Notes: generated by a model not told the origin, from the letters alone. A DNA stretch of 37,700 nucleotides from an uncultured Azospirillaceae bacterium (GCA_964342335.1 CAYFFN010000002.1:1-37700), one strand, 5' to 3'. Numbered from the stretch's first letter, positions 3,344 to 36,441 are shown. Translations and numbers: made by a program.

Positions 3344-5377
3344 TTAGCCAAGCGCGGCGCTACGTTGCGGGTTGCTTTCTTTTAGGGTCTTTTCCCAGCT
3401 ATCTGCTGGGTTAGCGAAGTTTCCGTTATTGCGCGCTCTATCAATGAGATGGCCATAGGCGCCAATGCCAAAGTCTTTGAGGCGCTGCTGTACGGCGCGT
3501 TTTGTTTCGCCTTCAAATTCGTGCTTGGCATTTTCCATTTCACGCGTGGCACGTTTGAGCTGATAGAGTTTTTCTTCCTCGGGCAATACGATAGCACCTT
3601 GCTTGAGGCGCACCCAACGTAGCTGAGCTTGCGCATAGCGCTCCGCTTCATCGCACTGTTCTTCGCTAAGCTTAGCCATGCTATCTTCATAGGCGCTGGG
3701 GGGATTGGCTATATAGCCTTCGGCCTTGGCAAGGGTTGGGCTTTGCAAATTGAGCAGGCTATTGAATCGTGCTTTATCTTTTCCTTCTGCGTTGACGGGT
3801 TTTGCTGGCTTAATGGCAAAGCATAGCAGCTGCTGGTTGCTAGGATTGTCCCGCAAGCCCTGGATATAGACCTTATCCTCCTCTTTTAACGCATCATGCG
3901 TATCCAGATAAGCAGAGGCGAGCTCTGATAGTTTTTGCTTTTCTACATCCAGTGAGGGCAGAGCCTCGACCGTGTTACTTGTATTAACGGCTTTGTGCTG
4001 CATCTCTGCTAGCTGCTCCTTTAGTGCGGCATCAGGCTCATAGGGCAATTTACCATAGCCTCCATGTAGCAGTATGGCAAAGGGTGGATGCACGGCAAAC
4101 TCACTTGCGTAAAGCGTTTTATTGGCGCGCTTCTCTGCAATATTCTCCAGAAGGTCTTCTGCCGTGAAGTCTGGGTTGGCTCTCTGAATTTCTAAGAAGG
4201 CACCTAGCACGTTCTTAACGGCCTGTGTTCCTACAATTTGCGAGCTAGGGGTTACAAGGGTGATATAGCACGCCTCTGCACGCACATTTGCCATTTCCAG
4301 TAAAGAGGCGCGCAGCAGCTTGTCTGTAATATCATTGGGAAGCCCCGCTTCTTTGATTTGGTTCAGCAGTGTCGTTGTCATGCCGCCCGGTACTTGGCTT
4401 TTTTGCACGAGTGCTTGCAGGTCTTCGCTGAAGGGGTTTTCGTATTGCGCGTATTTGGGGCGGATGGCGCGCCAATGTTCGGCGTAAAGTTCGGTTGTTA
4501 CTTCTGCATCCCTATTGTAAAATTCTTTAGGATAGAGGTCGGGGCGACGACGATTGAGGCTATCCAGAATGGTCTCGGTGGCACTATGGCCTGAGCCATC
4601 GCTCAACCCTTCGCTAGCGACATCCACTTGATCTACGCCCGCTTCAATGGCAGCGAGGATGGCTTCATCGCTGAGGCCTAGACCGCTTTGTGCATGGAGG
4701 ACGATAGGAACATCTACGGCTTCTTTAAGCGCTTTCACAAGCGGGGCTGCATGCTCGGCATCAAGCAGGCCTGCCATGTCTTTGATGCAGATAGAATCGG
4801 CACCCGCTTCGACTAATTGTTTTGCTAACTTCACATAATAAGCAGGGCTATAGGTGTCGCCGATTTGTGGGTTGGCTTCGCGCACCTCATCGTCAATTAC
4901 GGTATAGCAGAGCGTGCCTTGGGCATGGACATCCCAGCCTTTCTCTTCGCGCATTGTGCGCACGGTCTCGATAGCGTGGCGCATATTATCGATATCGTTT
5001 AGCGCATCGAAAATGCGGAAGGTGTTTACGCCCATGCGCTCGTCATCTTCACCAAACGGCTTTGCCGCCTCTTTGAGGAAGGCATCCATAATGGAGTCAT
5101 CATGGATCGTGAAGCCCACAAGGTTGCGGCCGCGTAGCAGCATGCTGAGATTTTTGTCATCTCCCAGGGTTTCGCGGAACTGGCGAAGATTCTCGAACGG
5201 GTCCTCGCCCTTCACGCGCAGCGGTGCATCAAAAGTAGTGCCACCCCAGACCTCATACATATTATAAGGCACGTCCTTCGCGGACTCTGCGGCTTGCAGC
5301 AGGTCATGTTGTTGCACCATGCCGCCCAAAATAGATTGGTGGCCATCGCGGAGGGTTACGTCGTTTAGCTTAACCAT
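3344..5377 (-). CDS. pyruvate/oxaloacetate carboxyltransferase-domain protein (OadA/PycB/5S-like) lacking a biotinyl domain, with a ~200-aa non-canonical C-terminal extension
   Basis: The N-terminus reads MVKLNDVTLRDGHQS, followed by GGTTFD, MLLRGRNLVGF, ICIKDMAGL and VTPSSQIVGTQA, which is typical of the HMGL-like/PYC_OADA carboxyltransferase fold. No (A/V)MKM biotin-attachment motif occurs anywhere in the 677 aa. Confidence 0.75.
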   Translation of the reverse strand: MVKLNDVTLRDGHQSILGGMVQQHDLLQAAESAKDVPYNMYEVWGGTTFDAPLRVKGEDPFENLRQFRETLGDDKNLSMLLRGRNLVGFTIHDDSIMDAFLKEAAKPFGEDDERMGVNTFRIFDALNDIDNMRHAIETVRTMREEKGWDVHAQGTLCYTVIDDEVREANPQIGDTYSPAYYVKLAKQLVEAGADSICIKDMAGLLDAEHAAPLVKALKEAVDVPIVLHAQSGLGLSDEAILAAIEAGVDQVDVASEGLSDGSGHSATETILDSLNRRRPDLYPKEFYNRDAEVTTELYAEHWRAIRPKYAQYENPFSEDLQALVQKSQVPGGMTTTLLNQIKEAGLPNDITDKLLRASLLEMANVRAEACYITLVTPSSQIVGTQAVKNVLGAFLEIQRANPDFTAEDLLENIAEKRANKTLYASEFAVHPPFAILLHGGYGKLPYEPDAALKEQLAEMQHKAVNTSNTVEALPSLDVEKQKLSELASAYLDTHDALKEEDKVYIQGLRDNPSNQQLLCFAIKPAKPVNAEGKDKARFNSLLNLQSPTLAKAEGYIANPPSAYEDSMAKLSEEQCDEAERYAQAQLRWVRLKQGAIVLPEEEKLYQLKRATREMENAKHEFEGETKRAVQQRLKDFGIGAYGHLIDRARNNGNFANPADSWEKTLKESNPQRSAALG

Positions 5378-5642
5378 GGATATTCCTATATGTTATTTTC
5401 AGCTTACTTACATAGCGGGCACTATTTGGAATCGGTGTTACAATTATGTTAAGACTTGTTAACGCGCTGTACCGACTGCTGAGCGGGCTTTTTGGCGTTG
5501 TGCGACGCACCAATTCGTCATTGCATTGCAGCTACCGTGCTGCACTTAATGCGCTGCGGCATAAACAAATATCTGTATTTCCTCGATAAAAGTGTGTTGC
5601 AAAGCGAAGCCGCAATGCAGCAGAAAAACGCATATATTTCAT

Positions 5643-5972: not shown

Positions 5973-6139
5973 GTACACTCGGCTTTGCCTCGCTATATCG
6001 CTTACCTAACGGTTCGCTAAGGCGCTGCGCGGCGCTTCGCCCTGACGGGCTACGGGTCGCTCCCTATCGGAGAGTTCCCACTCGTACCCATGATGAGTTA
6101 AGAACCGCGGCAGGCACGACCCTTCAAGGATACAAGAAC
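5973..6139 (+). repeat. partial copy (left end, ~165 bp) of the 'A' MITE-like element, fused to a 'B' repeat
   Basis: It starts with the same terminus as the element at 21323: TA|GTACACTCGGCTT(T/C)GCCTCGCTAT. It shares the internal blocks GCGCGGCGCTTCGCCCT.ACGGGCTACGGGTCGC and CTCGTACCCATGAT. No matching right terminus is present. Confidence 0.6.
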
Positions 6140-6216
6140 GCGGTCAGGAGACCGCGCCTTTAGTGCGCGAAGCGCTTAGGCTCATTGCGTAGGCCAGTAG
6201 GCCGAAGCAGGAGCGA
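6140..6216 (+). repeat. 'B' structured intergenic repeat, copy B1
   Basis: The sequence is GCGGTCaggaGACCGC-gCCTTTAGT-GCGCgaaGCGC-TTAGGCTCATTGCG-taGGCCagtaGGCC-GAAGCAGGAGCGA. It abuts the 3' end of icd. Confidence 0.7.
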
Positions 6217-6230
6217 TAAAAGAAACGTAA

Positions 6231-7463
6231 CTAGGCCGCCGCCTTAGTCTTTCCCCACGCGTCTTTGAAGCGCGTCTCTACCGCATCCATGAATGCTTCG
6301 GTGGTGAGGAAGCTTTGTTCTGGGCCGACGAGCAGGGCGAGGTCCTTGGTCATATCGCCTGCCTCGACCGTCGCAATGACGGCTTCTTCTAATGCATCAC
6401 AGAAGGTGATGAGGGGCCTGTTCTCATCAAATTTACCACGGTAGCGCAGCCCGCTTGTCCACGCAAAAATGCTGGCGATGGGATTCGTGCTGGTGGCTTT
6501 GCCTTCTTGGTGTTGGCGGAAGTGGCGCGTCACAGTCCCGTGGGCGGCTTCCGTTTCCACCGTTTTCCCATCGGGCGTGAGCAGTACGCTGGTCATCAGG
6601 CCGAGGGAGCCGAAGCCTTGCGCTACGATGTCCGATTGCACATCGCCGTCATAGTTTTTGCAGGCCCAAACAAAGCCGCCATCGGATTTGAGGGCATAGG
6701 CCACCAAGTCATCAATCAGGCGGTGCTCATACCATAGGCCGGCCTTCTCGAAATCAGCCTTATATTCCTCATCGTAAATACGCTGGAAGAGATCCTTAAA
6801 TCGTCCATCATACTTTTTGAGGATAGTATTTTTAGTTGAATGCAGCACAGGCATGCCCTGCGCCAGACCATACTCAAAGCTCGCACGGGCAAAGCCTTCG
6901 ATGCTCTCATCGAGGTTATACATGCCCATGGCCACTCCGCCGGATTCAAAATCAAAAATCTTATGGGCAATCGGCGCGCTGCCATCGGCAGGGGTGAAGG
7001 TCATGGTCAGCTCACCGGGCTTATCAAGCACCATATCCGTCGCGCGGTATTGGTCGCCAAAGGCGTGACGGCCGACGATGATTGGTTTCGTCCAACCCGG
7101 TACATAGCGCGGGATGTTCTCGCAAATGATAGGGGCGCGGAAGATAGTCCCGCCGAGAATATTGCGGATGGTACCATTCGGAGAGCGATACATGCTCTTC
7201 AGGCCAAACTCTTCCACGCGCGCCTCATCAGGCGTGATGGTCGCGCATTTGATACCTACGCCATATTCTTTAATGGCGTTTGCGGCGTCGACGGTGATTT
7301 GGTCTTCCGTCTCGTCGCGCTTTTGGATGGAGAGGTCGTAATATTTCAGGTCGATATCGAGATAGGGCAGGATGAGCTTGTCTTTAATCATCGCCCAGAT
7401 GATGCGTGTCATTTCGTCGCCGTCTAGCTCTACTACCGGCGTTTTTACGTGGATTTTGCTCAT
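6231..7463 (-). CDS. icd: NADP-dependent isocitrate dehydrogenase (homodimeric, eukaryote-like subfamily II)
   Basis: The 410-aa protein starts [23 protein letters not shown] and also contains [12 protein letters not shown] and TVTRHFR, typical of IDH1/2-like enzymes. AGGGAG RBS present. Confidence 0.93.
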
Positions 7464-7578
7464 GGAAGCTCCCTTTGCTTTTGCATTTGCCGAGGGCTAG
7501 CATAGTATCACAAAATGGCCTGTCAAACCAGCGTTGTATGCTGTGCATTGCAGCGGAAATGCGAAGTCTTGCATATAT

Positions 7579-7655
<77 letters not shown>

Positions 7656-7667
7656 TTCTCTAAAGGA

Positions 7668-7696
7668 TTGGGTTCTTTGTAATATTTTCTTATAAT
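7668..7696 (+). promoter_or_regulatory. putative sigma70 promoter TTGGGT-N17-TATAAT upstream of the signal-peptide ORF
   Basis: A perfect -10 lies at 7691..7696 with a 17-nt spacer. It is followed by AGAGGA (7707..7712) and an ATG at 7719. Confidence 0.45.
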
Positions 7697-7718
7697 GCGT
7701 AAAAATAGAGGATTTGAG

Positions 7719-8016
7719 ATGCTGGCGAATAAGTGGTGTATGTTTGGTTTCGTTTGTGCATTCTTTAGCGCCCCAATGGCGCATGCCGCTACATCCAGAA
7801 GCATCCTATATGGAGTTGCGGTGTTTGCGGCAGTTAGATGAGGCGGCCGCATTTGCCCGTTTAGACGAGATGCTGAAGGACAATAGCCTTACGGCTATTC
7901 ATCCGATGATAGAGCGCTACAGGTTTGTACTTGGATGGGAAGACTCGGGACCCAATCCCAAGGCGCACTTGGAATGGCTATTGTCTATCGTGGAAAGAGG
8001 CCGCTCCAAAGAGTGA
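7719..8016 (+). pseudogene. 5' part of a secreted-protein gene apparently split over frames (signal-peptide ORF 7719..7841, then frame of 7714..8016, then the 7925..9538 ORF)
   Basis: The ATG at 7719, with good promoter and RBS, encodes MLANKWCMFGFVCAFFSAPMAHA|AT, a Sec signal with an AxA site, but this frame stops at 7839..7841. Protein-like sequence continues in the next frame to 8016 and then in the third frame to 9538. The frames overlap at 7714..7838 and 7913..8016. Confidence 0.35.
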
Positions 8017-9538
8017 GTTTATAGATTGGATGGCTGCCAAGTGGGTCTATAATATTTTTGATGCGGATTGGCTTTGGGCATTACATCAGAAAGACGATGT
8101 TTATTGGCAGCAAAACAAGCATATTGTTGATCATGCATGGCAGCGCTGGAAGAGCGGAGACGGCTTGGAGTGGCTGCAAATTGTCGCGCGCCGCATTCAC
8201 CCCTCTGACCCATTGGCCACTGAGGTGCTGGCAGATATAACGCCCTTCCTGCATCGCAACTGGAAAGACGAAACAATCCAATACCAAGGATGGCTTTTGG
8301 ATGTATGGGCTCAGGCATTACGTATTCGCTTAGGCCGTAAAGAATATAGTGATGCGGTAGCGTTGGTAGCTCAGCATAACGGTTTCTCTGAACTCCAATA
8401 TAGCCCATATCAAACGTATCCCGTTAAGGTGTATGAGCGCGTACTACAAGATGCTTTGCGTTGGCTGGTTTACGTCGGGGAGGCGGAGGTGGCTCGTTCG
8501 GTGCTGAGCAACGCCGCAAAGGTCCCACCTACAGGGTTTGCACATTGGAAGGTGTTATTGGCCACGGATTGGCAAAGTGCAGTGGCTGCTAACTATAGCT
8601 ATTCGCCGGAAGGGGAGGCGTTTGAAGGCGCTCATTCTGTGGGTTTGTGGTACAAGATGGTGAATAATGTAAGTATGCACGAGCTTGTGCGGCTTTCAAG
8701 AGATGAGCAGCTTGCTGAGGAGATACGTGCGCTACTTATTCGCAGTGCCTTAAGCCGAGCCATTTTGTTAGGGGAGCCAAAGTCAAATATTGATGACTAT
8801 GCTGCTGACGCAGTCGTGTTAAATTCCGGCCTCGCCGAGGCGTTGGAGACGGCGATGGAAGCCGAGGATATTCAGGCATATACGGAATTGTTTTTCTTCT
8901 TTCCTCGCCTGCGTCCGTTGCCGTATCTGAGCTATGCGTATGATGGCTATTTGAGGTATGGTAGTCAGCAGTATAATGCAGAGCCACGTCGCATAGATAT
9001 TTATAACCATAATGATAATAATTGGTGGTGTCGTGTGGATCAGAACAGACTTGGCGACGCAGTTTTTGAGGCGGTAGAAATACGCCCTAACGCCTATTAT
9101 CGTTCACGATTCTCGCTCTTTAGGGGCAAACTTTTTAAAGATAGTGATGCGCTGACCCAGGAAATAAACCAGTACCGCGATATTCAAAAAAAGTTGATTG
9201 CGGATCATCCGTATCACAGCAGGGTAAAGCGAGATGAGACTGCGGCGCTAGAGACCATTCCTTCTGGACCCGAATATATCTCGCAAGAGGCTATAAAGCA
9301 GGCCGGAGGCGGGTTGTTTGGTTTTTGGACACGCATAGATGATACGGAAAAAGCAGCCCAGCAGCTTCACGCTGCCATACGCTCAACGCGTTATGGCTGC
9401 CAAAGAGATGGGTCGCACACTATATATTCGCGAAAAGCCTATAAAATATTACATGAAGATTATGCAAATACGCCTTGGGCACATGACACGCCCTATTGGT
9501 TTGGCTGTAAGCATTTTAGAGGCGGTTGCCCGCAATAA
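7925..9538 (+). CDS. hypothetical protein (Trp-rich, Cys-containing C-terminus), the largest intact ORF of the putative secreted-protein gene
   Basis: This is a 537-aa ORF with no motif I recognise. The TTG start at 7925 has no convincing RBS, and an internal ATG at 8031 is also possible. See the frameshift finding. Confidence 0.6.
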   Translation: MYLDGKTRDPIPRRTWNGYCLSWKEAAPKSEFIDWMAAKWVYNIFDADWLWALHQKDDVYWQQNKHIVDHAWQRWKSGDGLEWLQIVARRIHPSDPLATEVLADITPFLHRNWKDETIQYQGWLLDVWAQALRIRLGRKEYSDAVALVAQHNGFSELQYSPYQTYPVKVYERVLQDALRWLVYVGEAEVARSVLSNAAKVPPTGFAHWKVLLATDWQSAVAANYSYSPEGEAFEGAHSVGLWYKMVNNVSMHELVRLSRDEQLAEEIRALLIRSALSRAILLGEPKSNIDDYAADAVVLNSGLAEALETAMEAEDIQAYTELFFFFPRLRPLPYLSYAYDGYLRYGSQQYNAEPRRIDIYNHNDNNWWCRVDQNRLGDAVFEAVEIRPNAYYRSRFSLFRGKLFKDSDALTQEINQYRDIQKKLIADHPYHSRVKRDETAALETIPSGPEYISQEAIKQAGGGLFGFWTRIDDTEKAAQQLHAAIRSTRYGCQRDGSHTIYSRKAYKILHEDYANTPWAHDTPYWFGCKHFRGGCPQ

Positions 9539-9581
9539 ACAAACAATAAAATATGTGAAATAATATAATTCACAATTTATA

Positions 9582-9610
9582 TTGCGCATTAGACATAAAA
9601 CTGTCATATA
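9582..9610 (+). promoter_or_regulatory. putative promoter TTGCGC-N17-CATATA with embedded palindrome GACAtaaaacTGTC (18-mer GACATAAAACTGTCATAT at 9592..9609)
   Basis: The 18-mer is repeated identically at 11082..11099, upstream of the paralogous gene. The palindrome sits in the promoter spacer, a typical operator position. Confidence 0.4.
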
Positions 9611-9662
9611 TCCGTGCTAAACTAGACAATGAGAAAAACTCTAACCGCTAGAAGGGCGAACA

Positions 9663-11069
9663 GTGAACCGTTACGAATGGCAAGCAGACTCTGCGCTTAA
9701 GAGCGTAGCGATACGGCATGATCAGGTCTATCCGACTGCCTATATCGTTGCGTCTGATGCAGCAAATACAGCGCTGTATAAGCGCTTGCCGGAGCAGTTA
9801 TGCCGTGCAGGGCTGCAATGTGTTGCGGATGAATTTGAGGGCAAGCCTGCCCTGCGTGTGACGGGGTTCAAATACGACCAGCAGGTCATTCAGTATTTGC
9901 AGCAGACAGGTTTCACGAAGGCCCTACCAACCCTTACGGAGCGCGAGCCTGAGAAGCCTTTTAATGCCGGTGAGTGGGTTAAGGAGAATTCCGCGGTGGC
10001 GGCTGGTCTCACCTATCTGGTGGCGGATGGTATGCAATATGTCTCTGGCGCATTGCGTAAAGACAATAACAACAAGGCAATGGCGGGTTTCTTCGCCTCC
10101 ACTAGCGTGCTGCTTACTTGGCTGGGTACGCCAGATCCGAACCGTCAGATGGAGCGTATTTACCGCAAGTTTGACGATTACATGAAGCGCGAGGGTTTGC
10201 CGCTTGAGGAAGTAGAGCGCCGTTTGTTAAGCGAGCGCTCCGAAGATCGCGGCAATATGATGCGCCGCTTGACGAACTTCCTTTCCGACCATTTGACGAC
10301 GATTAATAATCTCGGTCAGGGCATTGGTGGGTATCAGGCATTACGTGCGGGTATGAACCAGCAGAACAAGTTTAAATCGGCATCTGGCGTGGCGATTATG
10401 ACGGGCCAGTGGGGTGCGCTTGGTATTGAGGAAGATCCGCTTGCGGGTATGAATGATCAAGAAAAAGAAGCTTATTACGCCGCTCAACGAGAGGGGAAGA
10501 AAGCGGATTTGAAAAAGATTGATCCTTTGCAAGACCCAGGAACTTGGCTCAAGCAGAAGCCATTACGCTTAACGACCTTGGGGGCAGGGCTGCATAATAT
10601 TCTTACCCTGATTGGTGGTTTTAGGGAGCAAATGAAGCCCAAAGATGAGATGGTCGCGTTTCAAAGCCAGCGTGGCGCGCATCTGGATATGGGGGCGCAG
10701 GGCGTGAATATTGTGGCGAACACGCTCTATGGCATGTCTCCGCGTGATCGTAGTGGCTTCCTCAAGGAAGAGGGCTATGTCGACGAGCTGACCAGCGTAG
10801 CGGCGCAGATTTTCTGCCACAGCCAAGGGCCTGAGCGTGCCGCGCGTGTGAGCCAATTTGTGGGCTTTATGTCCAGTATGCCGGAGACGAAGTCCTCTGC
10901 GCAGGAGATTTATAAGGCGATTGTCGATAAGATGGAGAAGCTGGAGCAGAACCCGTGGCACAGCGCGTCACACCAGCATGCCCACGCGGAGCCAAAGCCT
11001 TTAAAGCAGGTGCAGTCGCCCGTTTCACGCGAGTTTATGGTAGCGCCAGAAGCGCAACTCGCACTTTAA
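9663..11069 (+). CDS. hypothetical protein, paralog 1 (N-terminal ~95-aa soluble domain plus three Gly-rich helical-hairpin-like segments)
   Basis: The 468-aa ORF starts at a GTG with GAAGGG 6 nt upstream. It aligns along its whole length with the next gene (NRYEWQA, YPTAYI, LRV.GF, NS.VAAGL.YL, W.LK.KPLRL, YGMSP.DR.GFL, PWH). Confidence 0.7.
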   Translation: MNRYEWQADSALKSVAIRHDQVYPTAYIVASDAANTALYKRLPEQLCRAGLQCVADEFEGKPALRVTGFKYDQQVIQYLQQTGFTKALPTLTEREPEKPFNAGEWVKENSAVAAGLTYLVADGMQYVSGALRKDNNNKAMAGFFASTSVLLTWLGTPDPNRQMERIYRKFDDYMKREGLPLEEVERRLLSERSEDRGNMMRRLTNFLSDHLTTINNLGQGIGGYQALRAGMNQQNKFKSASGVAIMTGQWGALGIEEDPLAGMNDQEKEAYYAAQREGKKADLKKIDPLQDPGTWLKQKPLRLTTLGAGLHNILTLIGGFREQMKPKDEMVAFQSQRGAHLDMGAQGVNIVANTLYGMSPRDRSGFLKEEGYVDELTSVAAQIFCHSQGPERAARVSQFVGFMSSMPETKSSAQEIYKAIVDKMEKLEQNPWHSASHQHAHAEPKPLKQVQSPVSREFMVAPEAQLAL

Positions 11070-11081
11070 ATCCCCTAAAGC

Positions 11082-11099
11082 GACATAAAACTGTCATAT
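11082..11099 (+). promoter_or_regulatory. second identical copy of the 18-mer GACATAAAACTGTCATAT (palindrome GACA-N6-TGTC)
   Basis: It is an exact 18/18 match to 9592..9609 and lies 22 nt upstream of the GTG start of paralog 2. Confidence 0.4.
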
Positions 11100-11120
11100 T
11101 CTCCTGCTATAGTAGTCATA

Positions 11121-12614
11121 GTGGAAAAGACTACAGAACATAAACCGACCTATAATCGGTATGAATGGCAAGCAGGCAGCCCGATTAAGGCTATGGCGGT
11201 TAGGAAAGACCAAACCTACCCTACGGCCTATATCGAGGCGAGCGCGGATGCGGCCGATTCACTTTACACGCAATTACCCAAATTGCTGTCCCAACGCGGC
11301 TTGCTGTTTTTTGCCGATGAGCTGGACGGTAAGCAAGTGCTGCGCGTTTGGGGTTTCGACAAGGAAAGCGATATCCATGCCGTGTTGGAGCGCTCTGGCT
11401 ATGTGAACGGCACGGGCACGCAGACCGAAGTTGCGCCCGAGAAAAAGACAGATGGTCCCATGGGCTGGGTGCGAAAAAACTCGGTTGTTGCCGCGGGGCT
11501 AGGATATTTGACCGGTGACTTATTGCTCATGGCGTCGGGTCAGGTGCGCAAAGATGCGAGCCAAACAATAGGGTCTATGAAGTTTGCTGTGACCTCGGCG
11601 TTGCTGATTCTGCTGGGGAACAAGAACCCACGTACGCAGCTAGACCATCTCTACAAGAAGATGGATAACTACCTTGAGAAATCCGATATTGATCTTAGCA
11701 ATACCGACCACCACGTGCTTAGCCGATTGCACAAGAATGTCGACAATGTCTCTTCGGATGTTGAGCATCTGCTTTCTGAGCATGTGATTACCCTTAATAA
11801 CACTTTATTTGGCTGGGGTGGCCTCAATATGGCCCGCGCCGGTATGACGGGTAAGGGAAATTTAGGAGGTAAGCCAAACCCCTTTAAAGCACTTACGGGT
11901 TCGTCTTACACGCTGGGCTATTGGGGTGCAGAGATCATCCCAGAGGATGAAGATGCGGGCATGACCCGTGAAGAGGTGAAGGCCAAAGAGCAGGCCAAAA
12001 GAGAAGATAAAGAATTCAAACCCGCCCCCATTGATCCATTTGTGGATCCATGGTCATGGTTAAAGCGTAAGCCGCTACGTTTGGCATCGGTTTCGGCCAT
12101 TACTGGCAACCTTTCTTTGTTGGTGGGTGGATTCGGGTATGAGCTCCCGGAGATGCGCAAGAAATTGGGCGAACTGGTTAAGGGCACGGAAGAATATAAA
12201 AAGACCTCCGCTTATTTGCAGGGCTCGTTCTTTGATGGTCTTACGCCGCTGGCCTATATTACCGGAGGCGCGATTTACGGTATGTCGCCAAAAGACCGCC
12301 GCGGGTTCCTGCGTGAAGATGATTATTTAGGCGAGCTTTACACGGTTGCTGCGCATCTCTTCAGTGGTTTCCCAGAAGAAGAGCGCACCGTCCGTATTGC
12401 ACAATTTGCAGGAAATATGGCGAGCCATGATGAAATGAAGTCCACGGCCGAAGAGATTCAAGCACATATTGAGCAAAAGATTGCCCAAATTGAAACCAGC
12501 CCATGGCATATTGGGATGGTAAAAGACCGTCCAGAATACCGCGCCCATGCGAATGCCTCCGCGCATGAAGGGGTTCTAGCCGAGCCAGAGAAACTTGCCG
12601 CTCTTACCCATTGA
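11121..12614 (+). CDS. hypothetical protein, paralog 2 of the preceding gene
   Basis: This 497-aa ORF starts at a GTG with a weak RBS. It shares architecture and conserved blocks with 9663..11069. Confidence 0.7.
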   Translation: MEKTTEHKPTYNRYEWQAGSPIKAMAVRKDQTYPTAYIEASADAADSLYTQLPKLLSQRGLLFFADELDGKQVLRVWGFDKESDIHAVLERSGYVNGTGTQTEVAPEKKTDGPMGWVRKNSVVAAGLGYLTGDLLLMASGQVRKDASQTIGSMKFAVTSALLILLGNKNPRTQLDHLYKKMDNYLEKSDIDLSNTDHHVLSRLHKNVDNVSSDVEHLLSEHVITLNNTLFGWGGLNMARAGMTGKGNLGGKPNPFKALTGSSYTLGYWGAEIIPEDEDAGMTREEVKAKEQAKREDKEFKPAPIDPFVDPWSWLKRKPLRLASVSAITGNLSLLVGGFGYELPEMRKKLGELVKGTEEYKKTSAYLQGSFFDGLTPLAYITGGAIYGMSPKDRRGFLREDDYLGELYTVAAHLFSGFPEEERTVRIAQFAGNMASHDEMKSTAEEIQAHIEQKIAQIETSPWHIGMVKDRPEYRAHANASAHEGVLAEPEKLAALTH

Positions 12615-12659
12615 TTCACAAAGCTTGCATTCATGTAGCGGGGCTACTAAGAGTCCAGC

Positions 12660-15600
12660 ATGAGTATTACCTTAAAAGAGATTAGCCAAAAGGCGCATGA
12701 GGCCGAGTCTGAGAGCATTCAGAACTTGCTGCAGCATGTCGGTGCTTACGAGCAAAAACATAAAGCGATTCACGCCCTCGCCGGAGATTTGGTCACGCGC
12801 CTGCGTGAGGAAGGTTCGGGCAGTGGTGTGGAATCGTTTCTGCATGCTTACGGCCTCAACACGCGCGAAGGCGTGGCGGTGATGTGTTTGGCGGAGGCGT
12901 TGTTGCGCATCCCTGACAGTGAAACCGCCGATAGGCTGATTGAAGACACCTTCTCCGAAAGTAAGTGGGAAGAGCATCTCGGCAAGAGCGACTCGCTCTT
13001 TGTGAATGCCTCAACCTATGGCTTGTTGCTGACGGGTAAGGTCATCAATCTCGATAAAGATTTAGAGGGCGCGACCAAGGTCGGCTCGATGATGCGCGGG
13101 CTGATTAAGTCCTCCGGCGAGCCGGTGATCCGTAATTCGATTCGCGCGGCGATGAAGTTGATGGGCGACCAGTTCGTATTGGGTGAGACGATTGACCGCG
13201 CACTCAAACGCGCACGCGAGCCAGAGAATAAAGGCTACCGCACTTCTTATGATTTGCTAGGCGAAGGCGCGCGCACCCACGCACAAGCGATGGCCTATCT
13301 GGATGGCTATCTCGATGCGATTGGCAAAATCGGCAAAGCGGCAAAAGGCAAGAAGGGCATAGAAGCCCCAAGCATTTCGGTGAAGCTCTCTGCCCTGCAT
13401 CCGCGCTACGATTACGTGCATCGCGAGCGCGTGTTTAAAGAATTACTGCCACGCGTGAAGCAGATTGTGTGCGCCGCGCGCGACCAAGGCATTACCGTTT
13501 CCATTGATGCGGAAGAAGCCTCCCGTTTGGATATTGAGCTGGAGCTGTTCGAGCGCCTCTATCTGGACGATGATTTGCGCGATTACGATGGGCTTTCCTT
13601 TGTGCTGCAGGCATACCAGAAACGCGCCTTCTATATTATTGATTGGCTGGCAGCCCTCGCCAAACAAGGCGGCCGCCAGATTCCCGTGCGCTTGGTGAAG
13701 GGTGCCTATTGGGACAGCGAAATCAAATGGGCGCAGGTCGAGGGGTTGGATGGCTATCCCGTCTTCACGCGCAAGTATCATACCGATGTGTCGTACCTCG
13801 CCTGTGCAAAGAAATTGCTCGATCAGGGCAGCGTGCTCTTCCCGCAATTCGCGACGCATAACGTGCTCACCGTTGCGGCGATTATTGAAGTGGCGGGCGA
13901 TGCGCCGTTCGAGTTTCAACGTCTTTACGGCATGGGCCAGCGCCTTTATGAGCAAACGATTAAAGATTATCCGTGCCGTGTATATGCGCCTGTCGGCGTG
14001 CATAAAGACCTGCTCGCATACCTCATTCGCCGCTTGCTGGAGAATGGCGCGAACAAGTCCTTTGTGAATCTGCTGATGGACCGCGAGAAGTCGCTTGAAG
14101 AAATCCTCGAAGACCCGATTGAAAAGGCGCGCGAGTCGCATGGCCGCCACGCGGCGAATATTGTGCTGCCAGAGCAAATTTACGCCCCTGACCGTCGCAA
14201 CTCGCATGGATGGGATTGGGGCAATAAGCATGAAGTTACCCATGCGCAAAAAGAGATTGGTTCTTATCTTGGTCAGCCACTTGTTGCGCCACGCAACGCG
14301 ACGAAGGACGACATACATACAGCCTACGAGACCGCGCAAGCCGCGTTTAAGGTCTGGGAGCGTCATAACGTCTTCCACCGCGCACAGGTGTTGGAGAAGG
14401 CCGCAGATTTGATTGAGGAGAACGCCTTCTCACTCATGGCGCTCTGCACCAAAGAAGCGAAGAAGACCCATATGGACGCCCTCGCAGAGATTCGCGAGGC
14501 GGCAGACTTCTGTCGTTATTACGCCGCACGTTCGCGCGATATTATTCACCCGCAATTGCTGATTGGCCCGACAGGTGAGAGTAACACGCTTTCCCTCCAT
14601 GGCCGTGGCATCTTTGTGTGCATCAGCCCGTGGAACTTCCCGCTCGCGATTTTTGTGGGACAGGTAGTAGCTGCGCTCGTGACGGGTAACTGCGTGCTCG
14701 CCAAGCCCGCAGAGCAGACCCCTGCGATTGCTGCGGCGGCAGTGAAATTGCTGCATGAAGCAGGCGTGCCTAAAGAGGTGTTGCAGCTGGTATGCGGTGA
14801 AGGTGAAACGGTCGGTGCAGGCCTTGTGGCGCATCCTGCTTGTGCGGGCGTGGCATTCACTGGGTCAACGGGTGCGGCGAAAGCGATTCAACGCGCATTG
14901 GCCGATAAAGATGGCCCGATTGTACCGCTCATTGCAGAGACAGGCGGCATGAACGCGATGATGGTCGATAGCTCCGCGTTGCTCGAACAAGCGACCGATG
15001 ATATTGTTAACTCCGCCTTTGGTTCCGCTGGGCAACGTTGCTCTGCGCTGCGCGTGCTCTATGTGCAAGAAGACATTGCCGATGACTTATGGGAGATGGT
15101 CAGCGGTGCGATGGATGCGCTCGAAGTTGGCCCAACCGATAAGCTCTCCTGCGATGTCGGCCCCGTGATTGATAGCGAAGCACAGGCAGGGCTGATGGCG
15201 CATATTGCCCGTATGAAGAAAGAGGCGAAACAGTATAAAGCCGCCCCAGCTGATACCGCTGTGGTGCAGAGCGACAGTTTTGTCGTGCCGCATATGTTTG
15301 AGATTAGCGACATTAAAGCGATTGGCCCGGAGCAGTTTGGCCCCATCTTGCATGTGATTCGCTACGCGGAGAAAGACACTGAGAAAGTGGTGCAGGCGAT
15401 TAACAGCACGGGCTATGGCCTGACTTTTGGTCTGCAAAGCCGCATCATCCAGAACCATATCCGCATTATGCCGGAGATTCATGCGGGCAATATGTATGTG
15501 AACCGTAATATGATTGGTGCGACGGTGGGCGTGCAGCCCTTCGGGGGTGAAGGCTTGTCCGGCACTGGCCCGAAAGCCGGTGGCCCATACTATCTGCTGC

Positions 15601-15671
15601 GATTCGCGTCCGAGCGCACCACCACCATCAACACCACGGCGATTGGCGGCAATCTCGAATTGTTAGGCTAG
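12660..15671 (+). CDS. putA: bifunctional proline dehydrogenase / L-glutamate-gamma-semialdehyde dehydrogenase (short PutA without DNA-binding domain)
   Basis: The 1003-aa protein has a PRODH barrel region (SVKLSALHPRY, LVKGAYWD, FATHN) followed by an ALDH domain (ISPWNFPLAI, ETGGMNAMMVD, GQRCSA). Confidence 0.92.
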   Translation: MSITLKEISQKAHEAESESIQNLLQHVGAYEQKHKAIHALAGDLVTRLREEGSGSGVESFLHAYGLNTREGVAVMCLAEALLRIPDSETADRLIEDTFSESKWEEHLGKSDSLFVNASTYGLLLTGKVINLDKDLEGATKVGSMMRGLIKSSGEPVIRNSIRAAMKLMGDQFVLGETIDRALKRAREPENKGYRTSYDLLGEGARTHAQAMAYLDGYLDAIGKIGKAAKGKKGIEAPSISVKLSALHPRYDYVHRERVFKELLPRVKQIVCAARDQGITVSIDAEEASRLDIELELFERLYLDDDLRDYDGLSFVLQAYQKRAFYIIDWLAALAKQGGRQIPVRLVKGAYWDSEIKWAQVEGLDGYPVFTRKYHTDVSYLACAKKLLDQGSVLFPQFATHNVLTVAAIIEVAGDAPFEFQRLYGMGQRLYEQTIKDYPCRVYAPVGVHKDLLAYLIRRLLENGANKSFVNLLMDREKSLEEILEDPIEKARESHGRHAANIVLPEQIYAPDRRNSHGWDWGNKHEVTHAQKEIGSYLGQPLVAPRNATKDDIHTAYETAQAAFKVWERHNVFHRAQVLEKAADLIEENAFSLMALCTKEAKKTHMDALAEIREAADFCRYYAARSRDIIHPQLLIGPTGESNTLSLHGRGIFVCISPWNFPLAIFVGQVVAALVTGNCVLAKPAEQTPAIAAAAVKLLHEAGVPKEVLQLVCGEGETVGAGLVAHPACAGVAFTGSTGAAKAIQRALADKDGPIVPLIAETGGMNAMMVDSSALLEQATDDIVNSAFGSAGQRCSALRVLYVQEDIADDLWEMVSGAMDALEVGPTDKLSCDVGPVIDSEAQAGLMAHIARMKKEAKQYKAAPADTAVVQSDSFVVPHMFEISDIKAIGPEQFGPILHVIRYAEKDTEKVVQAINSTGYGLTFGLQSRIIQNHIRIMPEIHAGNMYVNRNMIGATVGVQPFGGEGLSGTGPKAGGPYYLLRFASERTTTINTTAIGGNLELLG

Positions 15672-24358: not shown

Positions 24359-25093
24359 TCAGATTCTTCGTGTTAAGTGTTGGCCGCCGGCCAAAGAAAT
24401 GACCTGTCCGGTGACACTCTGCGCATCCAGTAGCCAGTTAACCGCATCCAAAATTTCACTTGGATTGCTCTCGCGCTGCAAGGGTGTTTTGGCCGCGACA
24501 CGGGCGAACATCTCTGGGTCATCTTCGGGGCGCGGCAGGCTGAGGCCGAGCGCCAGCATGTTGATGCGCAGCTCGGGCGCGAGCGATTCGCCGAGCAAAG
24601 CGGGCAGGGATTCCATAGCGCTGCGACTCACGCCATAAGAGAGGAACGCGGGAGAATGGCTCCAACCTTTCAGCCCGTCGCCCAGCAAAATAAGTGGTGC
24701 GGGGGAGTCTGCTTTGAGTGTTTTGCGCTGCGCATGGAAATGTTTGGCGAGCGATAGGCTGGCATAGCAATGCACGCGCATATGGGCATCGAGTGTTTGC
24801 CACGTAAAGTCTTCCCAGCCGTCTTTCTCAAAGAGAGAGGCGTTGTGAATTACCGCATCCAAACCACCGCATCCCGCCAGCACGCGCGGGATGAGTTCCT
24901 CTGTCGCCGCTTCGTTGGTGAGGTCAGCTTGAAAGAGCTGACAAGCATCCCCCAGCTCGGCTTGTAGAGCTTCGGCCTCTGTTTGGGAGTGATGGTAATG
25001 CAGCGCCATTTGCCAGCTCTGCGCATGCAGGCTGTGGGCCAGCTCTGCACCGATACGCTTGGCACCGCCAGTAATGAGAATGGTTTTGGTCAT
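24359..25093 (-). CDS. SDR-family oxidoreductase (pteridine/dihydromonapterin reductase-like)
   Basis: It has the TGGAKRIG Rossmann motif, a short-chain dehydrogenase length of 244 aa and YxxxK-type spacing (YGVSRSA). Substrate assignment is tentative. Confidence 0.75.
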   Translation of the reverse strand: MTKTILITGGAKRIGAELAHSLHAQSWQMALHYHHSQTEAEALQAELGDACQLFQADLTNEAATEELIPRVLAGCGGLDAVIHNASLFEKDGWEDFTWQTLDAHMRVHCYASLSLAKHFHAQRKTLKADSPAPLILLGDGLKGWSHSPAFLSYGVSRSAMESLPALLGESLAPELRINMLALGLSLPRPEDDPEMFARVAAKTPLQRESNPSEILDAVNWLLDAQSVTGQVISLAGGQHLTRRI

Positions 25094-25132
25094 GCTATTA
25101 CTTAACAGGAATTAAAATAGTTTGACAATAAT

Positions 25133-26092
25133 ATGGCAGCGCAGCACAAAGAGGGCATGAAAATTCTTGCCTGCAACAGCAATGAGCCGCTCGCCAAAGC
25201 CATGGCCGATTATCTCGGCGTGGGATTGACCGATGCGAAGGTGCAGCGCTTTTCTGATAAAGAGATTTTTGTAGAGATTCAGGAGAATGTCCGCGGCGAA
25301 GATATGTTCGTGGTGCAGTCTACTTCCTGCCCATCCAATGACCATATAATGGAATTGCTGATTTGCTTGGATGCGCTAAAGCGCGCTTCGGCGCGTCGTA
25401 TCACGGCCGTGATTCCGTATTTTGGCTATGCGCGTCAGGACCGTAAGCCCGGCCCACGCACGCCGATTACGGCGAAGCTGGTGGCGAATCTTATTACCTC
25501 AGCAGGAGCAGATCGCGTACTGACCGTAGATTTGCACGCGGGGCAGATTCAGGGCTTCTTCGATATTCCGTTGGATCATCTTTATGCCCGCCCAGTCATG
25601 GTGGCGGATATTAAGGAACATTACCCCGAAGCGGATAAGCTGGTGGTGGTATCGCCGGATGTAGGCGGGGTGGTGCGCGCGCGTTCCCTCGCGAAGCGCC
25701 TTCATGCCGAGCTGGCGATTGTCGATAAGCGCCGCGAGAAGGCAGGCGTGTCCGAAGTCATGCATATTATTGGTGACGTGGATGGCCGCGATTGTATCCT
25801 GTTTGACGATATCGTCGATTCGGGCGGCACGCTCTGCAACGCGGCGGAAGCGCTGCTGGATAAAGGTGCGCGTTCGGTTGCAGCCTATGTGACCCATGGC
25901 GTGCTTTCAGGCAAGGCGGTGGAGCGCATTACTGCGTCGCGCCTTGAGTCTTTGGTGATTACCGACACAATTGCCGCAACCGCAGATGTCAAAAATGCCA
26001 AGAATATCAGAGAGGTAAGCGTAGCTCCGCTGCTCGCAGAGGCGGTTCAGCGTATCAGTGACGAGACCAGCGTCTCTAGCCTGTTTGATTAA
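25133..26092 (+). CDS. prs: ribose-phosphate pyrophosphokinase
   Basis: Motifs seen: [47 protein letters not shown]. An alternative start at the ATG at 25157 (MKILACNSN) is plausible because TTGACA lies at 25122..25127. Confidence 0.9.
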
Positions 26093-35658: not shown

Positions 35659-35805
35659 TTGTTCCTCTGATTTCTAAATTCGAAAGGCAACTATAGCGCC
35701 GCCCCACGGGCAGTGCAAGCGCTGCAAATGTCACGTTATTGTCACAAAAATCTGACGCGTTTCTGCTAGAATATCCTGAAATAAAGTAAAATTTAGGAAG
35801 TTAAA

Positions 35806-36441
35806 ATGGCAAGAGCAGACAATTTACCGCGCATCCCAGGCCCTAAACCCAGTATTATAAACCATGATATGGGTATTGGTATGGTGGTGGGACAGCTTGT
35901 TGCTGGGGCTGCAGCTTTCGCCTTCCTTGCTTTGGCCGGCCCATCTTTGTTGGCGGGTGCTAGCGTTGCCGGTATTGCTACCGCTCAATTGGCGGTGATT
36001 GGTTCAGGATTAGCTGGAACAATTGGCGGAGCATTAATAGGTGGATCTAATGGCAAAAAGCGCATGGAGCGTGAGCAAGTAGAAGGCCGCGAGGTACATG
36101 AGCCGACTTTTTTCAATAAAGGAATTCTTTCCGGCCTTTGGCTGGCCTTTCCTATTGGCTCTATCGTGTTTAGCTTCATCCGTAAGAATGAGATGGAGCA
36201 AGAGGTAAAACAAGCCGAGGGAATCGCGGAGACGCAGCGTGCAGGTCATTTCATGCTGGCGCAGCATGTGGCGATAGGTCATGAGCATGCTCAACAACAG
36301 CATATGCAGGTCACAACGGAGGATATGGCGTTATTAAACGAGAGAATGCGCGGAGGTTCTCATCAAATGCCCCAGTTCGTGCAGAATGAACTGCATCGCC
36401 AAGAGGCGGCTGCATTACAATCACAAGAAGCGAATCGTTAA
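35806..36441 (+). CDS. hypothetical membrane protein with a glycine-zipper segment
   Basis: An AGGAAG RBS and an AT-rich upstream region with TGcTAGAAT (35764..35772) precede it. It has hydrophobic Gly/Ala-rich helices (VAGIATAQLAVIGSGLAGTIGGALIGGSNG), a further TM helix and a His/Gln-rich tail. No other motif was recognised. Confidence 0.55.
   Translation: MARADNLPRIPGPKPSIINHDMGIGMVVGQLVAGAAAFAFLALAGPSLLAGASVAGIATAQLAVIGSGLAGTIGGALIGGSNGKKRMEREQVEGREVHEPTFFNKGILSGLWLAFPIGSIVFSFIRKNEMEQEVKQAEGIAETQRAGHFMLAQHVAIGHEHAQQQHMQVTTEDMALLNERMRGGSHQMPQFVQNELHRQEAAALQSQEANR

Follow-up and report, generated by a model that had tools for sequence, protein, structure and literature searches.

A 37,700-nt stretch of DNA from an uncultured Azospirillaceae bacterium (GCA_964342335.1, CAYFFN010000002.1:1-37700; hereafter the window) was analyzed with a focus on the three plus-strand coding regions that have icd (6231-7463, minus strand) on one side and putA (12660-15671, plus strand) on the other. 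These regions are the remnant of a gene termed gene 1 (7719-9538), gene A (9663-11069, 468 aa) and gene B (11121-12614, 497 aa). A tRNA-Arg(CCU) was located at 7579-7655 on the plus strand (ARAGORN; Rfam 70.7 bits) with icd on its left flank, and putA follows gene B directly, outside the A/B unit. An earlier note, made from the sequence alone, had placed the tRNA beside the cluster and described A and B as tandem paralogs, and both points held up: A and B share 38% identity over their full length (E 2e-105), and both start with GTG. We propose that A and B are PhoB-activated phosphate-starvation proteins that would form a membrane-associated bundle of three helical hairpins, and we give this reading as a whole a probability of about 45%.

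A and B are anciently duplicated members of an undescribed family that is conserved in uncultured aquatic Alphaproteobacteria. A word-indexed search of 5.8 billion proteins returned just five relatives (41-57% identity), all metagenomic and without names, and the same kind of search with a 56-sequence profile returned 7 proteins. An exhaustive hidden Markov model search of 1.84 billion representatives gave 520 clusters at E <= 1e-3, with 124 at E <= 1e-30. Ten sampled clusters came exclusively from metagenome-assembled genomes (MAGs) or metagenomes, and the names attached to them were "hypothetical protein [Pseudomonadota]" and "GNAT family N-acetyltransferase [Rickettsiales bacterium]", the latter a fusion protein. 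No relatives were found in viral contigs. All members found so far come from uncultured genomes, most of them alphaproteobacterial.

The A-B pair is kept between icd and putA in 4/4 close relatives (L001, L003, L004 and L014). The gene order is icd ... A-B-putA-amt-xerC-DUF484-tal-priA in L001, icd ... tRNA-Arg-A-B-putA in L003/L004 (Tara Oceans, Red Sea MAG RS372) and icd-A-B-putA-amt in L014, the closest relative. The B-type copies (orthologues P0006, P0042, P0043 and L014 2946-4421) have in common a 10-12-aa insertion between helices 5 and 6 that the A-type copies lack, indicating that the duplication predates the divergence of these genomes. Distant members are present as a single copy (L005, L006, L008, L009, L012 and L016). 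In L008 (UBA6178) and L009 this copy stands in an icd ... xerC-DUF484 neighborhood without putA, in L005 a 346-aa copy of 26% identity without the N-terminal domain lies directly upstream of putA, and in L006, L012, L013 and L016 the family gene is found in other neighborhoods. The codon log-likelihoods of A (-1.07) and B (-1.11) fell inside the range of the window (-0.92 to -1.23), as did their GC content at third codon positions (GC3; 0.60 and 0.55) inside that of its other genes. Taken as a real, conserved and core-like family, A and B are virtually certain.

Two of the distant loci carry further features. A long GC-rich inverted repeat (GAGCGAAGTGCGAAGC ... GCTTCGCTTCGCTC) lies between the family gene and putA at L005 10991-11080 and looks like a terminator or a repetitive extragenic palindromic (REP)-like element; a similar element was seen upstream of gene A in L016. 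The L013 member (6001-7608, P0119) is without the N-terminal domain and has a GNAT acetyltransferase domain (PF13302) at its C-terminus, and its locus contains the same rhodanese/ArsR-HTH/CMD triad that is found upstream of gene A in L001.

The earlier note could assign no family to A and B, and the searches agreed. Nothing above threshold was obtained with Pfam, NCBIfam or PADLOC for A, B or the gene 1 protein, nor for 56 diverse family members except one GNAT fusion; the sole PADLOC match was to LmuA (E 0.051), and neither a single protein nor the family profile found any sequence match in the PDB. AlphaFold2 (AF2) gave a predicted local distance difference test score (pLDDT) of 79 with 7 sequences, and a pLDDT of 90.3 with a predicted TM-score (pTM) of 0.84 with 56 sequences. 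Foldseek searches with two AF2 models gave best PDB matches at E 0.26 and 0.35 with TM-scores <= 0.28, none of them at E <= 0.001, and no match at E <= 0.001 in the viral structures of BFVD. The top rows held G-protein-coupled receptors, membrane domains of ATP-binding cassette transporters, ClyA-type toxins and a designed six-helix barrel, which is generic helix-bundle noise. On these models, A and B represent an undescribed protein family with a predicted fold that matches no solved structure.

The predicted N-terminal domain (residues 1-95) has a beta-beta-beta-alpha-beta-beta-alpha-beta order and merely weak SUI1-like similarity (E > 1); kinship with the neighboring YbjN gene was examined and rejected (hhalign probability 0.5%). 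It is followed in gene A by predicted helical hairpins at 110-131/135-154, 211-232/236-253 and 301-324/329-358, with amphipathic helices after each. The three pairs of Gly-rich, weakly hydrophobic helices described earlier are thus real, and they are family-wide (56 members). The six hairpin helices contain 3-9% charged and 30-45% Gly/Ala/Ser residues, and the other helices contain 15-46% charged residues. Within the hairpins, conserved Gly residues stand ~7 residues apart, large hydrophobic residues are variable and occur on all faces, and most helices have one conserved mid-helix Asp or Asn. A weak internal repeat was detected by hhalign, linking hairpin 1 to hairpin 2 (58 columns, probability 71%) and also to hairpin 3. 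Membrane association is favored because six ~20-residue helices are nearly free of charge and hydrophobic on all faces, and on these models we would give even odds that the hairpins associate with a membrane.

Both genes are preceded by a predicted PhoB-type promoter on the plus strand. In the promoter of gene A (9590-9623), the Pho box at 9590-9607 (TAGACATAAAACTGTCAT) is followed by a 10-nt spacer, a TG at 9615-9616 and the -10 element TAAACT at 9618-9623. That of gene B (11080-11113) has the same layout, with the Pho box at 11080-11097 (GCGACATAAAACTGTCAT), a 10-nt spacer, a TG at 11105-11106 and the -10 element TATAGT at 11108-11113. An 18-mer, GACATAAAACTGTCATAT, is identical at 9592-9609 and 11082-11099 (chance expectation 0.01). 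The earlier note had seen this shared motif and called it private to the cluster; the sharing is exact, but the motif is that of a Pho box. The box is made of a CTGTCAT-like 7-nt element that is directly repeated after an A-rich spacer of 4 nt (11-nt period). In both A and B, the distance from the second CTGTCAT to the TG-extended -10 is exactly 10 nt, which places the box at the -35 position. Two CTGTCAT repeats with a 4-nt spacer make up the Pho box, Alphaproteobacteria included (PMC4415409, PMC3131613), and PhoB requires strict spacing to the core promoter elements (PMC10294691).

Both boxes match the consensus CTGTCATAWAWCTGTCAY, which is that of E. coli, at 15/18 positions. When the 37.7-kb window was searched for this consensus with <= 3 mismatches, only the promoters of A (two overlapping matches) and B (one match) were found, against an expectation of 0.07. 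Across relatives, the box and the -10 element could be aligned in 10 promoters whose proteins are 22-57% identical, giving the consensus ..G(a)CA(t)A(a)AA(c)TGT(c)A.A-N6-TG(c)TA.a.T, and four further box promoters were identified (L012, L014 A, L014 B and L016). In all, the box is present in 14/15 independently found family promoters. Leave-one-out scores with a position weight matrix (PWM) ranged from 14.8 to 26 bits, and the best non-family match reached 17.7 bits (183 kb, both strands). The -10 of gene B ends 7 nt before its GTG, as it does in the B gene of L001, indicating an mRNA with little or no leader before its GUG start; the B gene of L003 has a 40-nt leader with a hairpin instead.

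A fixed pattern derived from the family promoters alone (GWCAYMWAAHYGTMAYANNNNNNTGYTANNNT, ~36 bits) was then scanned over one genome per GTDB species. It matched at least 118 genome loci, compared with ~13 expected by our own estimate. Among the matches listed, the recognizable downstream genes were mostly classical Pho-regulon genes. They encode PstS-type binding proteins at 13 or more loci (clusters of 7 and 5, plus the alphaproteobacterial MAG L092), UgpB-like binding proteins (3 loci), Na/phosphate cotransporters (3), polyphosphate kinase (ppk; 2), a phosphoesterase of the PlcN type in Pseudomonas, TonB-receptor plug proteins and major facilitator superfamily transporters, and in several of these loci phoB or pstB is present in the 8-kb stretch that was examined. 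Two family members were also among them, L040 (Lake Mendota) and L050, the latter being the B gene of L004. Control of A and B by PhoB is therefore probable as judged from the promoter sequences.

Box-like repeats were also observed elsewhere in the window. At 35728-35772, three Pho-box-like repeats with 11-nt spacing (ATGTCAC, TTGTCAC and ATCTGAC) are followed after 10 nt by a TG-extended TAGAAT. The open reading frame (ORF) downstream, 35806-36441 on the plus strand, encodes 211 aa with a Gly-zipper-like membrane segment and has a GC3 of 0.45 and atypical codons; it had no Pfam match and no similarity to A/B or to other box-linked ORFs, and it is possibly a third member of the A/B regulon in the window. 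Upstream of an oadA-like gene (3344-5377, minus strand; an HMGL-like/PYC_OADA carboxylase), three repeats of the (G/C/T)(T/G)TAAC or TGTCAC type stand at 5436-5463 on the minus strand at 10-11-nt spacing (13.8 bits), about one helical turn farther from the -10 than in A/B, and the orthologous site in L001 (6534, minus strand) scores 17.7 bits. A 17-bit box match (CTGCCATATTATTGTCAAA) at 25121-25139 on the minus strand lies where 39 nt separate a short-chain dehydrogenase gene (24359-25093, minus strand) from prs, and may be due to chance. An inverted repeat, TGTGAA-N9-TTCACA, occupies 9554-9574 in the AT-rich stretch just 5' of the Pho box of gene A. This repeat may act as a second operator or as an UP-like element, and comparable AT-rich palindromic stretches are found 5' of A in L001, L003 and L014.

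In the reading that we prefer, phosphorylated PhoB would bind the box when phosphate is scarce and recruit RNA polymerase at A and at B, so that both proteins would be produced during phosphate starvation from separate transcripts. In each protein, the cytoplasmic alpha/beta domain of ~95 aa and the three Gly/Ala/Ser-rich hairpins would make one compact unit, the six hairpin helices would bundle in or at the cytoplasmic membrane, and the conserved residues D122, N215/N216, N312 and N353 may line a polar path through the bundle. A and B are presumed to act together because they are always adjacent wherever B exists. Probably as a hetero-oligomer, they would adapt the membrane to phosphate stress, either by the passage of a small solute or ion or by stabilizing a remodeled membrane. 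Any specific molecular function of this kind, solute/ion conduit or membrane stabilizer, is at most an unlikely guess.

Several observations weigh against this reading. Among the loci examined, no operon partner or conserved functional neighbor indicates a function for A/B, and the L013 member lacks the box, the sole exception among the family promoters examined. The Kyte-Doolittle peaks of A/B are only 1.0-1.4, and the minima on a crude translocon scale (Hessa) are 4.5-4.9 kcal/mol, where known membrane proteins of the window range from -0.6 to 3.8 and soluble enzymes from 2.5 to 8.3. Lys/Arg residues are as frequent at the hairpin tips as on the opposite side, so that there is no positive-inside bias. 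In the pattern scan, the matches to recognized Pho genes all came from genomes other than that of the window and the family-bearing MAGs; in two of the latter, MSM10 and D1_Bin_43, the further matches precede unknown proteins and no pst genes. In alphaproteobacterial and 'Rickettsiales' MAGs, the pattern also often stands before peptidoglycan peptidases and many small Gly/Ala-rich ORFs, for which no evident role in phosphate metabolism was seen.

The physical measures allow a different view of the proteins with PhoB-type control kept. A and B could be soluble and cytoplasmic, with the charge-free helices as the buried inner layer of a two-layer globule that is wrapped by ~10 amphipathic helices and the N-terminal domain, and they would bind or process a small molecule, or enter membranes conditionally. 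The low hydropathy of the hairpin helices (0.4-1.2 per helix), the lack of any 19-residue window below 4.5 on the Hessa scale and the equal Lys/Arg density at hairpin tips and opposite flanks agree with such a globule, as do a charged insertion (mean ~49 residues) at the tip of the third hairpin in many members and the single compact unit of the AF2 model (pTM 0.84). The sole core match with a notable TM-score is likewise a designed soluble six-helix barrel (TMt 0.43). However, a charge content of 3-9% in six helices of 18-22 residues with hydrophobic residues on every face is more typical of membrane proteins, genuine membrane helices that are Gly-rich and weakly hydrophobic exist, and the crude scale gives a poor value (3.8) to a known polytopic enzyme of the window as well. 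Hydropathy, the Hessa sum, Lys/Arg bias and helix periodicity are all crude tests whose results point both ways, and we regard soluble proteins as possible but doubtful.

The identity of the regulator was considered in the same way. The peptidase genes and Gly-rich ORFs behind the pattern suggest that the regulon of these alphaproteobacterial/'Rickettsiales' lineages may be unusually wide, extending past phosphate, or of a different kind, under another regulator. The box could accordingly be bound by another regulator of the OmpR/PhoB family, for example one for envelope or osmotic stress, with A and B as part of an envelope-stress regulon. Such a regulator would account for the pattern before a D-Ala-D-Ala carboxypeptidase, a peptidoglycan-binding M15 peptidase and an M48 peptidase, for the many small Gly/Ala-rich putative membrane proteins behind it, and for the two to four stringent matches in each of several MAGs (CALJMC01 and JANNSK01, 4 each; JBMOIY01, JABDCC01 and JAKFUW01, 2 each; among L018-L135). 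The repeats before the Gly-zipper membrane protein and the oadA-like gene of the window, and the variable half-sites (TGTCAT, TGTAAC and TGACAT), which resemble those of OmpR-type regulators, would also fit. Against it stand the match of the best sites to the PhoB consensus (15-16/18) at the canonical distance to the -10, and the genes that the pattern recovers: classical Pho genes from Gamma- and Betaproteobacteria, and pstS from the alphaproteobacterial MAG L092. The published motifs of CenR (TGA-N8-TGA) and ChvI (GCC-N8-GCC or TTGC-N3-GCAA) differ from the box, and both were rejected as the regulator of A/B. We consider control by a regulator other than PhoB quite unlikely.

A role beside PutA in proline utilization, as a proline/glutamate carrier or a membrane docking partner, would be suggested by gene order: putA has a family gene as its direct upstream neighbor in the window and in L001, L003 and L014, and also in the more distant L005 (26% identity). 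Yet putA is preceded by a promoter-like element of its own (window 12615-12659: CTTGCA, then ~17 nt and a CTA-rich stretch), and the CTTGCA element is kept in all four genomes (window, L001, L003 and L014); A, B and putA each have a separate promoter-like region. No Pho box was found 5' of putA in the consensus and PWM scans of the window, and no Lrp-type putR gene adjoins putA there. A hairpin stands between the two genes in L005, and in L006, L008, L009, L012, L013 and L016 no putA adjoins the family gene. With separate promoters and the adjacency missing in many relatives, putA co-function was rejected as the main explanation and is very unlikely; the adjacency is local synteny.

The signal-peptide start, Trp-rich body and Cys-bearing C-terminus attributed earlier to gene 1 are present, but what remains is a pseudogene whose homologues (n = 35) are nearly all 735-837 aa long, with N-terminal signal peptides and faint tetratricopeptide repeat (TPR) matches; a few of them are labeled "tetratricopeptide repeat protein". 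By tblastn and local alignments to P0008 and P0009, three out-of-frame pieces of an ~810-aa secreted TPR-family protein were mapped. The first (7719-7841, from ATG 7719, MLANKWCMFGFVCAFFSAPMAHA) comprises the signal peptide and ~10 further residues, corresponds to homologue residues ~1-30 and ends at a stop codon; the middle piece (7786-7992) is in a second frame (residues 176-245) and the main piece (7994-9538) in a third (residues 301-809). Homologue residues ~31-175 and 246-300 are missing, and these two internal deletions (~145 and ~55 codons) broke the frame. As ORFs, 7925-9538 has 537 codons with two shorter pieces before it in other frames, and the longest callable ORF (8030-9538, 502 aa) has no signal peptide; this ORF was found in identical form on 3 contigs.

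The remnant matches P0008 at E 2.9e-150 and is 36-46% identical to the ~810-aa secreted TPR-repeat proteins (P0008-P0039; for example Methylocucumis oryzae VZ94_06275 and SAR86 COC19_02900) over the C-terminal ~510 residues, with conserved Cys/Trp motifs in common; unlike these intact proteins, it is split over three frames and lacks the ~145 and ~55 codons. That group is an uncharacterized signal-peptide family of ~800 aa with the motifs YNHNDNNWWC, RTTRYGC and TPYWFGC, distributed over Alpha- and Gammaproteobacteria, including Methylocucumis and SAR86. The GC3 of gene 1 (0.48) is well under that of the other long genes of the window, and its codon fit (-1.20) lies close to the bottom of the range. 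Upstream of it, the element TTGGGT (7668-7673)-N17-TATAAT (7691-7696), previously read as a near-consensus promoter, is present at 7668-7696 on the plus strand with a 6/6 match at the -10; its -35 agrees with TTGACA at only 3/6 positions, and a consensus promoter scan left the element below threshold and unlisted.

Because gene 1 is absent from the A/B loci of L001, L003, L004 and L014, because the icd-to-A gap in L014 is merely 238 nt and because intact homologues stand in unrelated neighborhoods, gene 1 is best read from these alignments as an unrelated, lineage-specific insertion between the tRNA and gene A that has since decayed. Among the examined loci of intact homologues, none adjoins an A/B relative; with neighbors such as thrS, on the downstream side, and a saccharopine dehydrogenase-like gene, a functional partnership of gene 1 with A/B was rejected.

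The earlier note had taken the three genes for a horizontally acquired, tRNA-linked accessory module, either a secreted effector with membrane partners or a toxin/immunity set, and this is hardly credible: what speaks for it is the adjoining tRNA-Arg, a gene 1 with a signal peptide, low GC3 and lineage-specific occurrence, the unannotated tandem paralogs and the bi- and tripartite alpha-pore-forming toxins among the non-significant Foldseek top rows (E >= 0.26, TM <= 0.28), and what stands against it is the syntenic A-B pair with core-like codon usage in all close relatives, a pseudogene of a family that stands alone in unrelated contexts, separate promoters for the genes, an empty PADLOC result and no viral relatives. 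No integrase or mobility ORF was found in 7400-12800 by ORF listing and Pfam scan; no direct repeat of the tRNA 3' end was detected, the top direct repeat of the region being the shared promoter motif. The same tRNA lies ~150 nt 5' of gene A in L003/L004 and has no counterpart at the A/B locus in L001 and L014; it is a neighbor and not an integration site for A/B. The same position of A-B in all close relatives argues against a genomic island, and synteny, core-like codons and the lack of an integrase or tRNA-end repeat together indicate that A/B is not accessory. The comparisons of the icd/putA junction and of composition, which the earlier note had itself proposed, thus went against the accessory claim: the GC content of the cluster is slightly under that of its neighbors, and the compositional outlier is the gene 1 remnant alone. 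The "tRNA-flanked cluster" was a misleading signal, its island look having come from a dead gene 1. The remaining genes of the window are housekeeping genes, as had been stated (sucA/B, lpd, uvrC, lgt, prs, L25, pth, ychF and others), and Rfam detected no RNA element over the cluster except tRNA-Arg(CCU).

Phosphate scarcity shapes life across much of the surface ocean, and the known bacterial responses, such as Pst transport, phosphatases and lipid remodeling, come mainly from cultured models. If PhoB control holds, the A/B family would be an unstudied part of the phosphate-starvation response in abundant aquatic bacteria. What is new here is the protein family and its predicted fold, not a mechanism of action. 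A bolder version is that A and B represent a new class of PhoB-controlled membrane devices, each a six-helix bundle of three hairpins with a fold not seen before, and the tip of a large Pho-type regulon of Gly-rich proteins. That regulon would then include the ORF at 35806-36441 and the small Gly/Ala-rich ORFs behind the box in related MAGs, and uncultured marine and freshwater Alphaproteobacteria would widely share a new type of phosphate-stress device, a solute/ion conduit or a stabilizer of phospholipid-poor membranes. We hold this version to be rather unlikely.

Among known proteins, those of the TMEM14/UPF0136 family (PF03647) gave a weak match to the first hairpin of gene B (E 0.019; 16.1 bits against a cut-off of 24.8), and 0/56 family members, gene B included, matched at E 0.01. 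Gly-rich helices are common to both, whereas TMEM14 proteins are ~100 aa long and have no extra domains. The ClyA-type alpha-pore-forming toxins (AhlB, SmhB, XaxB and Hbl) resemble A/B in being all-helical, with hydrophobic hairpins and tandem paralogs. Their structural matches were poor (E 0.26-1.2, TM 0.11-0.28; best E 0.26 for the first model and 0.58 for the second), the helices of A/B have ~20 residues compared with 40-50 in these toxins, and A/B differ from them by the lack of a secretion signal, the core genomic position and the Pho-type promoter. E. coli PsiE is a Pho-regulon protein with a PhoB-type promoter, a predicted link to the inner membrane and, as with A and B, no known biochemical role. 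A and B are unlike PsiE in having no kinship of sequence or fold with it, in being three to four times larger, in their extra N-terminal domain and three-hairpin repeat, and in their occurrence in uncultured, mostly alphaproteobacterial genomes only. The likeness to PsiE-type proteins lies further in a stand-alone gene, a PhoB-type promoter and a predicted inner-membrane link.

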